A stretch of DNA of 64,000 bases from Spizellomyces punctatus DAOM BR117 (taxonomy: Eukaryota), in NCBI GenBank assembly GCA_000182565.2, contig KQ257451.1. The stretch is one strand, 5' to 3'. Below the pieces are notes generated by a model. The model did not search any database. It saw only the letters and a program-made list of their open reading frames with translations, and had not been told where the DNA came from. Positions 8,701 to 13,800 of this stretch are shown here, piece after piece. A program made the translations under genes and the position numbers. Every line of letters begins with the position of its first letter. The first letter of the stretch is position 1.

Positions 8701-9694
8701 TATTCACATCCAATGCAAACTAACAGATTCCTGACCTGAATTATGTACAAACAAATATGAACCCAAGCAGTCACAGTGATTAAAGTATTGAAAATGGAGA
8801 GACCCAATCTCACGGCTTTCTGCGTGATCGGGGAGAAATTGAAGGCGACGTTTTTGCTATGGACGAAGCTATATCACTCTGAGAAGGTCCGTTATCACGG
8901 GACAGCACAGACTTACCTTGGCGTAAAGACCATCATAATGGATAAATGCATTCGCCAGAATCGTAAGGGGTAGAGGAACGCAAGAACCTGACTTGCATCA
9001 AGGTAATCTGACTTCGCGTCGTCCTTTTGAACGAACGCCCATATAACCGGCAACGTCGCCAAAAAGGACACCAGAGAGAACCATGAGACCAAGTCTGCCA
9101 TTGGATCCAAAGATAAATAAACCCTCGGTAGCCATTGGGTCAGTATCGCACAAGCAAGCACCAAGTCTGCAACAAAGAGACCATCGGGCGGGGGTGCTGG
9201 TCGCTGTGGAGGAAGATTTGGGTTACCTCGCTTTGGAGCAATGATATAGGTTGTCATGTACACAAAGAGCAGAACGAATGCAACATTCAACGCGGCATCG
9301 AGAACATGCCACCTATCGGATACAAAATTTGAGAAGCTGCCAGAAGACGTTAGAGGTTTTGCAGCTTTACTAACCATCGGCCCAGGGTTGTATAGTCCAG
9401 ATAGTATGCCCAGCGCTCCCGCGCCGAAGGCTGTCTGATTTTCTCCCCTACATTTCCTGTAATTCCCGTATCCAAGTAATGACAGTCATTGTCTTCATCT
9501 TCAGAGCTACTGTCACCCCTCTTGCGCGAGACGGGCCCGTCGTCGAAATTACGTCCAGGTCGTGCTCTTGCTGTGGGTTTTTTTAGCCATTTCTTCCCGG
9601 ATGGTGACCAGACCGGATGAACTCCTTTGGTCTTGGGAGCAGGAGGCCGAGAAGACACACCTGCCGATGCGAGCAGTGGTTGACGTTCTGCCAT
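5718..9694 (-). CDS. Slo/BK-family (KCNMA1/KCNT-like) channel with tandem RCK domains and a non-canonical pore motif (multi-exon)
   Basis: Transmembrane helices, S6-linker PTNLADLLALIRNKSKYDRSY, RCK1 HVLIAGN, MLAQSCLAPGFSTLLYLL, EIYAVTLSSAFAGMSF, RCK2 DHVLIC, C-terminal LGLYR...YVVVNP...DDLVYV. Confidence 0.88.
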
Positions 9695-9824
9695 GTCTTG
9701 CTGTAGGCGTCGTCAACGTGAAGAAGGGCAAGCAGGTATCTTTTTCAAGCCGATGGGTTAGGTAAACCAAAGATCGCTTATAGCCACGTGATTTGCGGTC
9801 AGGACGCCGTGCGTTTCAAGGATC

Positions 9825-10178
9825 ATGTCCCTTATGCATGCCGTGAGGGAAGAAGGGTTACGACTTTTCGACTTTCTGGCGCGGATAAGGTGGCAAGACT
9901 TGCATGATAGTCTGGATGGCCGCGGCGACGATGTGCCAGACCCTGATCCGAAGGGCGATGAGGAGGGAGGTGAGGATGACGAGAGCGACGACGACCGGAG
10001 TGGGTCGTCCAGGCGCCGGAAGCGCCGGCACAAGAGGTCTCGGCTTCAGCGTGCTGGAGCGAAGGATCCGGTCGTCGATAGCACCGCCAAGGTTCAAGGT
10101 TGGCTTGCTCATGTAATCCAACCGGAAGGCCCAGGCGCTGCTCCTGGAGCGGAGGATCTTCCTCCCTTCGCGTCGTGA
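9825..10178 (+). CDS. Small orphan protein (117 aa) with an acidic tract followed by an Arg/Lys-rich motif (RRRKRRHKRSR)
   Basis: ATG-initiated intronless ORF ~130 bp from the divergent channel ATG, matching the head-to-head layout of other genes here. CACGTG lies at 9785-9790. No family recognised. Confidence 0.5.
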   Translation: MSLMHAVREEGLRLFDFLARIRWQDLHDSLDGRGDDVPDPDPKGDEEGGEDDESDDDRSGSSRRRKRRHKRSRLQRAGAKDPVVDSTAKVQGWLAHVIQPEGPGAAPGAEDLPPFAS

Positions 10179-10266
10179 TCGTTGGGGCCACCCGACTTTC
10201 CGTCCTCCAGGTAAGTATCGAGGTAAGTATGGTCTCTCCTTCCCGAAGAGGACGTGGTAGAAACTA

Positions 10267-10472
10267 CACAGCGCAGTGGCCTAGCGGCTGGGCGAATCTG
10301 TGGGGCCACGCTGAGGGAAGCCGATAAGTCGCGCGATACGGTAGCAAGTTCACAGCGCAGTGGCCTAGCGGCTGGGCGAATCTGTGGCGCCGTACACCCG
10401 GTGTTATTCCCGAAGGACGTGGTAGAAACTACACAGCGCGGTGGCCTAGCGGCTGGGCGAATCTGTGGCGCC
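10267..10472 (+). repeat. Three near-identical 41-nt direct repeats (10267-10307, 10351-10391, 10432-10472) with 43- and 40-nt linkers
   Basis: Consensus CACAGCGC(A/G)GTGGCCTAGCGGCTGGGCGAATCTGTGG(G/C)GCC. Copies 1 and 3 also share the upstream TTCCCGAAG(AG)GACGTGGTAGAAACTA. Confidence 0.95.
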
Positions 10473-10542
10473 ATGCATTGTACTTTTGGAAGCAGGCGAC
10501 TCTCGGGAGCACTTTGGCCGTTGAGAGTTTTCTTTCAACGGT

Positions 10543-10619
10543 GGAGGTGTAATGCAGCTGTACCCGTCCCAAGCCGGGGGCTCGTTTCTCCATGAAATGG
10601 GAATGCAGAGGGCATCTTC
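10543..10619 (+). ncRNA. Twister self-cleaving ribozyme, P1 type, with a P5 stem
   Basis: P1 GGAGGUG/CAUCUUC; UAA (10550-10552); P2 UGC/GCA; P4 CCCG/CGGG closing loop UCCCAAGC; GAGGG at 10608-10612. Pseudoknot partners CCC/GGG and GC/GC are present. P5 CUCGUUUC/GAAAUGGG. Matches the twister consensus as I recall it. Confidence 0.88.
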
Positions 10620-10865
10620 AAGTGTGGTCTAACATGTTGGGTCTAAATGTGTATTATCGGAACCGAAACGCGAGACTTCCAAGCTTTTGCGTTTTCAATA
10701 CATTTGGACTTGTTGCAGACGGTGCTTGTTATTCAAATGCCTTTTGTTTTAACGCCCTCTTCCAGACGCCTCGCAACGACCAAGAAATAGCAATTAAATG
10801 TGCTGAGGAATTGTCACAAATTTATATTGTCGAGTAGTTACATCACGTCCATCTAAATAGGGGCA

Positions 10866-13800
10866 CTATGCAAACTCCTCGGTCGTTGGAACGGGAGTTA
10901 TTTTCCATATCCTTTTGGCATAATCTTGAATGGATCTGCGCGATGTGTAACGTCAAAGAGACATCCAACGCGGTTCAAACGGTCAATTGCTAAATACCTA
11001 TCAGAACTGAATTTCCCCATGCTTGCAGCAGCTGTGATGCACTTCTTGGCCCATGCAGACTTGTTCTTAAAAGCTGCATCGACGCGTTCCATCGCCTCCA
11101 AGTCTGTGTACGACCAATTAATACCCAATGATACTTGAAGTTACGCTTTAAAATCAATTCAATCTTACATGGTGTAAAGTCCTTGCTTAACAAATAGTAA
11201 TCGGAGCGAAGGGTGCCTAAGATCACATTCGAATCGATAAGAGCTTCCTCCGCGGCCTTGTTACTAAAGTGCGAGCCTTACCGAGAAGAGGCTCAAATAT
11301 GACCGAGTCCCCGTAGCGACCCGATTGAATGCTTTTGATGACACCTTGAAGCTTGGCATCCATTGCGACGTTGTGATACATTTGGTGATGCCGGATGTCC
11401 TCCACCTCAGCTGTCAGAGCGCCAAAGAAAAAAATGTTGTCCTTGCCAACTTCTTCGCCGATCTCAATGTTGGCTGAACAGGAGGAAAAGTCAGTATGCA
11501 ATGGAGCCCCATAGCAATTCAATCATCAAATGTGCACCTCCATCAACCGTTCCCAGGATCAATCCTCCGTTTAGTACAAATTTCCTGCATGTTGGGAATT
11601 AGTCCGACTCGAAAACACAAGATGAAAGGAGTCCAGATTGCCCCGCGTTCCTTACATGTTAGATGTGCCCGAAGCTTCAGTTCCAGCTGTTGAGATATGC
11701 TGGGAAAGATCACTTGCCGGAATTAAGATCTCGGCAACAGAGACATTGTAGTTGGGGATAAAAATAAGCTTGAGGTATTCAGATGTCTGTGGGTCCGCAT
11801 TCACAACATTCGCCACGCTGGTGATCAGCTTGATAATGAGCTTTGCAGTGTAGTAACCTGCGCTAACGAGTGAATGGGCAACTCTTTTGACAAATTACCA
11901 TATCAGCGGAAATAACAATACTGACCTGGCGCAGCCTTGCCCGCAAAGATCACTTTTTGGAAGGACATGTGAGCGATGCTTCCATTGCCAAGCTACAGGC
12001 CATATCACATACCGACTCGCGGAACGACTTTTTCCAATTCCGCCTTGCTCATACTCTTCAGTTTCTCATACCGATGAATGACGCCAAAGATATTCATGTG
12101 CTGACGCTTATATTCGTGCAAACGCTTGCATTGCACGTCGAAAAGCGCATCAGGTGAGAGTGTCACACCGGTAACATCCTTGACATACTCTGCCAATCTG
12201 ATTTTGTTCTTGTACTTGATGTCCATGAACCTGTTCTGAAAGCCCACGTCATCGGCAAATGCTTTGATTTTGTCCAATTGAGACAAATCCTTTAACCAAG
12301 CAGTTCCCCCCAACTTCTCGGAAATGAGGGTACTCAACCCAGGGTTTGCTTGGTGCAGCCACCTTCTCGGGGTAACACCATTGGTCACGTTGACAAATTT
12401 CTCTTTACCAAAGAACTCAACGAAGTCAGCGAATATTGTTGTCTTCACAAGTTCAGAATGAAGCTCAGCAACACCGTTAACGTGATGGCTTCCGATCGCT
12501 GCAAGGTGCGCCATCCTCACATACTGAGGGTGTCCTTCTTCAATGACAGACATGCGCCGCAGCCTGTCTCTGTCACCCGGGAACAACTTTTCCACACGTT
12601 GTAGGAAGTAGAGGTTGAGCTCAAAAATAATCATCATGTGACGAGGAAGTAAGTCTGAGATCAAGGGAACTGCCCATTTCTCCAGAGCTTCGGGCAAAAC
12701 TGTGTGGTTGGTGTACGAATATGTGTGCGTCACTATATCCCATGCCTCGTCCCACGTAAGTCCCTCCTCGTCAATCAAAATTCGCTGCAGCTCGACAATG
12801 GAGAGGGTAGGATGCGTATCGTTCAATTGAATGGACACCTGCTGGGGGAATTCTGACCAAGGTCGGGATGTCTTCTTGAAACGCCGAATGATATCTTGCA
12901 ACGTTGCGGAAACAAAGAAGTACTGCTGCTTGAGACGCAGGACTTTGCCGACCATATGGTTATCGTTCGGATACAAGACACTTGTAATGTTTTCGGCTGC
13001 CTTCTGCTCCTCCACACTCTTATCATAGTTGCCCTCGTTGAAGCTGACGTAGGGACGCGTTCAGTGTTTGCAACAAAGCTACAAGACTTACATGGCAGAA
13101 ACATGAATGGGCTAACTGAGGATGGCTCACCTTGCAAAGTCAAACTCCTTCTTCGGCTTACTTGACCAGAGGCGGATGTTGATGCAATTCTTGGTTTGGA
13201 ACCCAGGAATAGGATAATCATTTGCGACCGCGACAACCTTTTCGCCTCCCTCCCATCGATACCGTGTTTGTCCACTAACGTCTACATATTTTTCAACGTA
13301 CCCGCGGAAGCGAACATCATACGAGACATCCAGACGTTGAATTTCCCACGGGTTTCCAAACGTGAGCCAGTAATCAGGGTACTCTGTTTGGTACCCATCC
13401 ACCAGCTGCATTCATGCAATATGATCACTGTTAGTATCCAAGGAGTAAAAAGCATCTGAAATTCTCTCCACCTTCTGTTGAAAGATTCCGTATTCATATC
13501 TGATCCCGTATCCCCTGGAAATCGTCAATGAGCAAGAGACACACATTCGCTTTTAAATAAAACCGCAGTGCACACCATGCAGGATAATCCAGAGTGGCCA
13601 AAGAGTCCATAAAACAAGCGGCCAATCGCCCCAAGCCCCCATTGCCCAATGCTGCATCAACCTCTTCATCGACAAGATCCTCAATTGTGAATCCAATACC
13701 ACCAATTGCGCGTTTATAGTGGTCCTTCAAATTCAAGTTCAACAAGGCATTATCAAGTGTTCGTCCGATCAGAAACTCGAGCGACATGTAATAGACGCGC

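Follow-up and report, generated by a model that had tools for sequence, protein, structure and literature searches.

Between two minus-strand genes of Spizellomyces punctatus DAOM BR117, within a stretch of 64,000 nucleotides (nt) of contig KQ257451.1 (assembly GCA_000182565.2) that was analysed as a whole and is called the window here, lies a GC-rich island whose plus strand carries an open reading frame (ORF) of 117 amino acids (aa), two tandem 5' splice-site (donor) motifs, an array of three structured repeat units, a short hairpin and a predicted self-cleaving ribozyme of the twister class. The best explanation for the island as a whole is that it forms the twister-terminated 3' RNA module of a truncated family gene, a reading that we favour tentatively and that falls somewhat short of being probable. 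Among the interpretations offered by an earlier inspection of the bare letters (the sequence-only reading), the one in which an array RNA has its 3' end set by the twister fits best. The same reading had judged the segment to be richer in GC than its neighbours without computing it, and the calculation agrees, giving GC contents of 0.55-0.61 across 9700-10600 as compared to 0.41-0.50 on both flanks.

The ribozyme is a type-P1 twister without P3 and with a P5 insert and occupies positions 10542-10620 of the plus strand. In cmscan it aligns at 10546-10616 to Rfam family RF03160 (twister-P1) with 35.8 bits, corresponding to an E value of 1e-5 in a search of 1.4 kb and of 4.6e-4 for the whole window, both strands and 4227 Rfam families, and it is the sole match in the window with an E value of 0.5 or less. 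The alignment spans model positions 1-68 of 68, and outside the deleted P3 all conserved loop nucleotides are matched, the U-A cleavage dinucleotide and the P4 loop included. Helices P1 (10542-10549 with 10613-10620; 8 base pairs (bp), 2 of them G-U), P2 (10553-10556 with 10604-10607; 4 bp) and P4 (10563-10566 with 10575-10578; 4 bp) follow in canonical order around internal loops, and P5 adds another 8 bp (10581-10588 with 10594-10601). Two pseudoknots can be drawn as well, PK1 with two G-C pairs (10557-10558 with 10573-10574) and PK2 with three (10568-10570 with 10610-10612). Helices and pseudoknots were read from the sequence against the consensus architecture given in the accessible part of PMC11662667; the covariance model scores no pseudoknots. 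According to that part of the same source, PK1 and PK2 are the elements that tolerate defects least, and all twisters with a P5 stem-loop that were assayed cleaved well in its high-throughput assay. By its anatomy we regard the motif as a genuine twister, which is predicted to cleave between U10550 and A10551 and is presumably active as a ribozyme. It shares with the twister-P1 family (clan CL00120) P1, the cleavage-site loop, P2, P4 with its conserved loop, the 3' purine-rich strand and the capacity to form the pseudoknots, and as in the family the predicted 5'-side cleavage would leave the ribozyme on the 3' product. Different from the family, however, the window copy lacks P3, contains the 8-bp P5 and is located in a fungal nuclear 3' region beside donor motifs and a repeat array.

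Upstream of the ribozyme and on the same strand, the three hairpin repeats with variable linkers of the sequence-only reading were recovered in a register of 63 nt (starts at 10249, 10333 and 10414; periods of 84 and 81 nt). Unit 1 (10249-10311, type 1) consists of an outer stem, CGTGG/CCACG, around a 9-nt joiner and an invariant 37-nt core hairpin (10267-10303). Unit 2 (10333-10395, type 2; core 10351-10387) has the outer stem TACGG/CCGTA, which departs from that of unit 1 in both partners of three pairs. Unit 3 (10414-10476, again of type 1; core 10432-10468) differs by one A-to-G change that turns an A-U pair of the core into G-U, and its outer stem contains one G-U pair. Allowing for at most one mismatch, the 37-nt core occurs three times as compared to no occurrence in 100 shuffles. 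In the three units all 51 of 51 cells hold standard pairs, three pairs being changed on both sides, while controls with slid partners are at most 48% paired. Since the three G-U positions would be A-C on the other strand, the structure belongs to the plus strand, which is also that of the ORF and the twister. The array is followed by the 10-bp hairpin that had likewise been proposed, found at 10518-10541 of the plus strand with a TTTT loop; its inverted pair is 90% complementary, and it directly abuts the 5' strand of twister P1.

The units resemble no catalogued RNA that we searched for. A cmscan search of 9600-11000 with E values up to 10 returned only the twister and three chance-level matches, and thus neither a family for the repeat units nor any riboswitch family, and ARAGORN detected neither tRNA nor tmRNA in the window. 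By eye, models of hepatitis delta virus (HDV)-like, hammerhead and pistol ribozymes, of C/D or H/ACA small nucleolar RNA, of tRNA-like, polymerase III box-bearing and iron-responsive-element-like RNAs and of a telomerase-RNA-type precursor were tried, none of which fitted all three units or was backed by a program. A 28-nt core was absent from the metagenome contigs searched and a 25-nt core from the viral contigs searched.

The 117-aa ORF (9825-10178, plus strand) had been taken for a small gene in its own right encoding an Arg-rich protein. The frame exists, but its independence does not hold: the ORF represents only the tail of a longer protein family, made up of an acidic stretch, an Arg/Lys-rich stretch and a conserved ...GAED end, with homology starting from about 9819. 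A phmmer search over 1.84 billion representatives gave three matches, namely the ORF itself, P0002 (392 aa, residues 287-391 of which align with 75% identity and an E value of 6e-37) and P0003 (506 aa, 74% identity, E value 1e-18). A word-based search with the ORF returned the ORF alone, and later word-based searches returned four and five proteins. The family thereby totals five: two proteins of Spizellomyces punctatus DAOM BR117 and two of Spizellomyces sp. 'palustris', all four as named by NCBI, and the window ORF. As judged from these searches, the tail-bearing family (P0002-P0005 and the window ORF) is known from Spizellomyces only. Its complete members have 339-406 aa, with an N-terminal domain of about 280 aa followed by the tail, and in four of the five, including the window ORF, a stop codon follows 1-7 residues past the conserved GAED, P0003 being the exception. 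When the four relatives were compared to the window by tblastn, the alignments began at residue ~280, at position 9819 of the window, and no further match, and hence none to the N-terminal domain, had an E value below 0.1. Because the tail alone is aligned, the window copy is a 5'-truncated paralogue. Its start codon corresponds to an internal methionine shared by all family members, it keeps all 44 columns that are invariant across the five members, and its frame is intact at 63-75% identity to the relatives, with GC contents of 0.74/0.49/0.59 by codon position. The tail-only ORF is thus probably still under coding constraint, and the fact that the frame was kept in spite of a protein divergence of 25-37% speaks for a gene maintained over a long time and against a recent insertion. 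A stand-alone novel small gene is therefore wrong as to origin, the ORF being a truncated family member; in effect the idea may nevertheless be right, the frame being intact at this degree of identity.

The N-terminal domain that the window copy lacks is itself elusive. No family member reaches a Pfam threshold (the best match is DUF7924 with an E value of 0.065, for P0004), the family profile gave no match to PDB sequences at E values up to 10, and an AlphaFold model of the domain was unusable, with a predicted local distance difference test (pLDDT) score of 32. Look-alikes of P0005 residues 40-300 in the ESM Atlas belong to PDDEXK_12 (PF20516) and DUF7924 (PF25545), both fungal and PD-(D/E)XK-like (feature score 0.95; template modelling (TM) score of the models 0.74-0.77). 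This model-based likeness of the N-terminal domain to PD-(D/E)XK proteins is to be taken as a lead only. A profile search for viral relatives of the family yielded 590 pattern matches, of which none was confirmed.

But does the array accompany the tail elsewhere, or do the ORF and the downstream elements occur unlinked in relatives, which would have told against the sequence-only reading? For the array the answer favours that reading, as at least two other loci show it behind the tail. In Spizellomyces sp. 'palustris', P0003 has no stop after GAED and continues for about 125 residues, and 91 of its 127 C-terminal residues lie in exact matches of at least five residues to three frames of window 10179-10600. 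The matches include runs of 19-21 residues over the unit cores, while the tail proper is 74% identical, and they make up an array of four units, with types 1 and 2 alternating, that follows the tail. The type-2 unit of the window is read in another frame in P0003, one and the same nucleotide core gives different peptides in successive units, and the linkers contain frame-shifting indels. That one core is read in several frames is characteristic of a non-coding element that was swept into a gene model, here that of P0003. Judged from these predicted sequences, the array is shown to be conserved at the nucleotide and not at the protein level, and it proves better conserved than the tail itself. 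Around P0003 residues ~380-395, compared with window 10158-10250, the reading passes from the tail frame through a second frame (HPTFRPP) into the frame of unit 1, and this without a stop and without residues that could stem from translation of the two GTAAGT motifs. The 'palustris' locus may have neither the stop codon nor the donor pair; alternatively, the P0003 gene model may be wrong there.

The second locus emerges from sequencing runs. Six runs contain part of the stretch, and four of them (X1-X4) were compared, all with thin coverage. Run X4, the kind of which is unknown, contains the window form together with a variant in which 8 nt are inserted behind 10160, positions 10171, 10186, 10208 and 10220 are substituted and 2 nt are deleted at 10233, and thus with four substitutions and 10 gap letters in 119 nt. 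Because the insertion produces the ending ...GAEDLE-stop, which is the C-terminus of P0002, we assign the variant to the P0002 paralogue rather than to an allele. Contigs of this type continue through both donor motifs to 10249 in X4 and into unit 1 in X3, so that this second paralogue too has the donor pair and unit 1 after the tail. In X3, an RNA-Seq run of a root metagenome, the contig in question (10181-10296) is unspliced across both donor motifs and shares three of the variant substitutions and the 2-nt deletion, position 10160 not being covered; another contig spans 10267-10380. Since its phosphorylase contig lacks a 62-nt intron, X3 includes RNA that was processed in this organism or a close relative. 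Finally, the RNA-Seq run X2 contains a junction from unit to unit with a linker of 9 nt as compared to 17 nt in the window. With its linker shortened by 8 nt, X2, which comes from another sample, represents another form of the array, and the difference in spacing is not divisible by three.

These comparisons bear on the view that the repeats have no function as RNA at all, but are a DNA-level element, such as a cluster of binding sites or a minisatellite, or else a coding repeat, with the twister being decayed or a chance look-alike. The window periods of 84 and 81 are divisible by three, the array is open in plus-strand frame 0 (10227-10594) and in a minus-strand ORF of 121 aa (10109-10474), it is translated in the gene model of one relative, and fungal twister candidates tested by others were inactive. 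Then again, one core appears in different frames within one predicted protein, the spacing of the X2 array is not divisible by three, and the minus-strand ORF has no Pfam match and with 0.59/0.68/0.55 a GC content by codon position that is non-coding-like and differs from that of the genes of the window. Moreover, this view has to account for three compensatory changes on both sides of a stem, for strand-specific G-U pairs and for a twister match at an E value of 4.6e-4 with all core nucleotides kept. We therefore consider it quite unlikely.

We give similarly little credence to the island being a mobile or once-mobile element, be it a retro-copy, an introner-like element or a retrozyme or viroid-like insertion between the channel and phosphorylase genes, the last of which had been proposed in the sequence-only reading. 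Retro-copies are typically truncated at the 5' side but complete at the 3' end, the island is sharply unlike its surroundings in GC content, there are several paralogous copies, and environmental RNA libraries hold repeat-unit contigs with other linkers. However, the 64 kb contain only one ribozyme, on one strand; neither terminal direct repeats nor a target-site duplication were found, no run of at least four A occurs in 9701-11000, just five family members are known from two genomes, and the truncated copy is in frame at its considerable divergence in protein. With retrozymes and viroid-like circular RNAs, as described in the accessible part of PMC4918200, the island has in common a small ribozyme together with structured non-coding RNA of a few hundred nt. 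These elements, however, carry ribozymes in two direct repeats or in both polarities and occur in many dispersed copies, whereas the window contains one twister, has no long terminal repeats and links its RNA module to a protein-coding tail with which it travels. The proposal of a retrozyme or viroid-like origin is accordingly not upheld. A back-joint in X2 from 10472 to 10409 is the unit-to-unit array junction with the 9-nt linker mentioned above and not the junction of a circle.

Between the stop codon and the array, 31 and 43 nt past the stop, lie the two tandem consensus 5' splice-site motifs (10209-10230, plus strand), in which AGGTAAGTAT is present twice by a 12-nt duplication. These copies, at 10209 and 10221, are the only two in 64 kb, where 0.06 would be expected. 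The sites as such had been recognized in the sequence-only reading; the stem in which they were thought to be enclosed is at chance level (z +0.66, with 153 of 200 shuffles as good). In the paralogue-type contigs both AGGTAAGTA cores are kept, and a single flanking position is swapped between them (places 10208 and 10220). Consensus donor sites of such strength bind the U1 small nuclear ribonucleoprotein (snRNP) tightly, and strong donor sites in terminal exons block polyadenylation or retain the RNA. In the window as a whole, GGTAAGT occurs 12 times on both strands as compared to 4.7 expected, and behind many GTAAGT sites a branch-like motif and YAG appear within 55-90 nt, which makes short GTAAGT-type introns the rule in this genome.

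How, then, might the parts of the island act together? In the explanation that we favour, the segment would be the 3' part of a Spizellomyces family gene that lost the N-terminal domain of ~280 aa and retained the tail ORF and a non-coding 3' module. Transcription would proceed from about 9770-9820 through ORF and module, the latter being free of poly(A) signals: none of 13 common poly(A) hexamers occurs between the ORF stop (10178) and 10697. The twister would fold and cut the transcript between U10550 and A10551. The upstream product, comprising ORF, donor sites and array, would end 9 nt past the 10-bp hairpin with a cyclic phosphate and without a poly(A) tail, and the downstream product, the ribozyme with a 5' hydroxyl, would be discarded before transcription enters the convergent phosphorylase gene. 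The fate of the upstream RNA would then be set by the repeats together with the donor sites left unspliced, for instance through retention, stability or protein binding. The elements and their strand, the truncation of the ORF and its membership in the family, the linkage of tail and array at other loci, the conservation of the array as nucleotides and an RNA-library contig running unspliced across the donors are seen directly, whereas we infer the activity of the ribozyme, the products of its cleavage and a part played by U1 or the tail protein.

Several points weigh against this account. The twister score of 35.8 bits lies below the Rfam gathering score of 67.2, which is why the motif is missing from a default Rfam scan; the score is low because 17 positions of P3 are deleted and 20 nt, P5, are inserted. 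The twister named in the sequence-only reading thus stands by its anatomy and its conserved loop nucleotides, though not by this score. Multiple fungal twister candidates were inactive in vitro according to the accessible part of PMC11662667, published in 2024, and the linkage of a twister to the family was checked at, and is drawn from, the window locus only. The shuffle control for covariation in the array is weak with three units, as 42 of 500 shuffles reach the observed value. Contigs can show neither the ends of an RNA nor its strand or level and hence are silent on ends at 10550/10551, and runs X1-X3 have no cover over parts of 9300-11300, the twister included. Run X1, of a kind guessed to be RNA, contains one contig of 270 nt, identical to the window, whose end at 10222 falls precisely on the base that precedes the second donor. 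Finally, the donors, a good branch and acceptor at 10749-10765 and a poly(A) hexamer just behind them look like a designed intron.

This last resemblance is the core of the strongest rival explanation, in which the module is a spliceosomal intron in the 3' untranslated region (UTR). Splicing from the donor at 10211 or 10223 via a branch at 10752 to the acceptor at 10765 would remove 555 or 543 nt and leave an mRNA with a short UTR that is polyadenylated via ATTAAA (10793-10798, plus strand), the first canonical-type poly(A) hexamer after the ORF stop, located 28 nt past the acceptor. The twister would then compete with splicing or process the intron into an array RNA; in a variant of this scheme splicing stops after its first step, which frees the 5' exon at the donor site. 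As the sequence-only reading had noted, a branch-like TTAAC (10749-10753, plus strand), a pyrimidine tract and an AG (10764-10765) are indeed in place, and similar motifs close the short GTAAGT introns of the window, such that donor, branch and acceptor motifs of the candidate match the type of the host genome in a comparison of motifs within the window. Both donor motifs are kept perfect in the paralogue-type contigs despite diverged surroundings, the X1 contig terminates at a donor, and an 11-nt complementarity of 91% between 10245-10255 and 10752-10762 could join the ends of the intron. Inverted repeats of 10-16 nt are frequent locally, however, with 10 pairs in the 1.4 kb around the island. 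Furthermore, with 543-555 nt the candidate is outside the usual range, being 6-10 times longer than the recognisable GTAAGT introns of ~55-90 nt in the window. No contig of the four thinly covering runs joins 10210 or 10222 to 10766, and the RNA-Seq contig 10181-10296 is unspliced, although the 62-nt phosphorylase intron has been removed in the same run. We consider the intron possible but doubtful, and less likely than a module that ends by cleavage. The two are not mutually exclusive, though, as a slow splice gated by cleavage would amount to the autoregulatory competition between splicing and ribozyme cleavage that was suggested in the sequence-only reading; the motifs for such a competition are present, while an exon-exon joint was not seen in these runs and the RNA contig crosses the donors unspliced.

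A further idea is that tail ORF and RNA module form a self-contained protein-RNA unit that selection kept after loss of the N-terminal domain, with the Arg-rich tail binding the invariant hairpins of its own transcript, which would be ended by the twister and not polyadenylated, and the tandem U1-type sites retaining the RNA in the nucleus or gating a slow splice. We regard this as rather improbable, less so than a non-functional or mobile origin and more so than the intron.

Where does the island stand among known systems? Rodent Clec2 transcripts provide a precedent, in that a self-cleaving hammerhead ribozyme is located in the 3' UTR of a protein-coding gene. Similarly, the window ribozyme is encoded in sense orientation, downstream of the stop codon but ahead of the first poly(A) signal, so that cleavage would part the ORF from the poly(A) tail. 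It differs from the Clec2 hammerhead in ribozyme class, in kingdom and in the additional conserved RNA elements that follow the stop codon. In TPP (thiamine pyrophosphate) riboswitch introns of fungi, structured RNA steers the choice between two 5' splice sites. The window likewise presents two close donors, followed by conserved folded RNA and a distant acceptor; different from the riboswitch introns, however, the element is in the 3' rather than the 5' region and the folded RNA is a repeat array with a ribozyme. Engineered 3'-UTR twisters are mentioned in the accessible part of PMC6765202. Our search of the literature, which did not extend to the supplementary candidate lists of the 2024 twister survey, found no fungal nuclear twister with a defined conserved gene context. 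Neither did the literature yield the combination of a twister with tandem donor motifs and a structured repeat array, nor anything relevant on twisters in chytrids and early-diverging fungi, on ribozymes of Spizellomyces or on the two Pfam families that the N-terminal domain resembles.

As to the setting of the island, the neighbour on the upstream side is a channel-like gene on the minus strand, the first ORF of which begins at 9694. Its parts at 9350-9694 and 8913-9377 (minus strand) comprise a GC-richer (0.53) N-terminal exon of low complexity and then membrane-helix-like sequence. As the start codons of this gene and of the plus-strand ORF are ~130 nt apart, the two would share a short divergent promoter region. 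A CACGTG hexamer at 9785-9790, to which no strand is assigned and which the sequence-only reading had counted in, is present, but with 13 copies in the window it is about as frequent as expected by chance and has no demonstrable part in the feature. On the other side lies the gene for glycogen phosphorylase (Pfam PF00343, E value 5.6e-135 for one exon), also on the minus strand, with its 3' end at 10866-11140 and its stop codon at 10866-10868. Its 62-nt intron at 10936-10997 (minus strand, GT..AG, with the donor GTATTT rather than GTAAGT) is removed in the RNA-Seq contig, which reaches down to 10815, and so the phosphorylase 3' UTR converges on the plus-strand unit and may overlap with it. Contig ends at 9768 and 10797 in X4 were not read as transcript ends, since the kind of this run is unknown and intron sequence of the neighbouring gene is included.

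Two pairings in or near the island deserve mention. The AT-rich stem-loop 3' of the ribozyme (10640-10710, plus strand), described before as another long stem-loop, can be folded, but not above chance level, as its z value is -1.43 and 16 of 200 shuffles are as good. CCTCCA (10203-10208), immediately before the first donor, is complementary to TGGAGG (10543-10548) in the 5' strand of twister P1. In principle this 6-bp pairing might link access to the donor sites with folding of the ribozyme; a complementary 6-mer easily arises by chance.

What most of the small self-cleaving ribozymes encoded in genomes do biologically is unknown, as stated in the accessible part of PMC6765202. Here a well-formed predicted twister has a fixed place in a transcription unit, beside RNA elements whose conservation exceeds that of the coding sequence next to them, and thus offers a rare natural setting for asking what eukaryotic twisters do. 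The role of a eukaryotic twister becomes a concrete question at one locus, with one cleavage site, two donors and three repeats, and the organism can be cultured and transformed. The locus also illustrates that what appears to be an orphan small ORF may turn out to be a paralogue cut short, with the conservation residing in its non-coding 3' module. If the tail and the module did prove to be one protein-RNA unit, this would constitute an autoregulatory or ribonucleoprotein-forming circuit based on a ribozyme, of a kind not described in eukaryotes.

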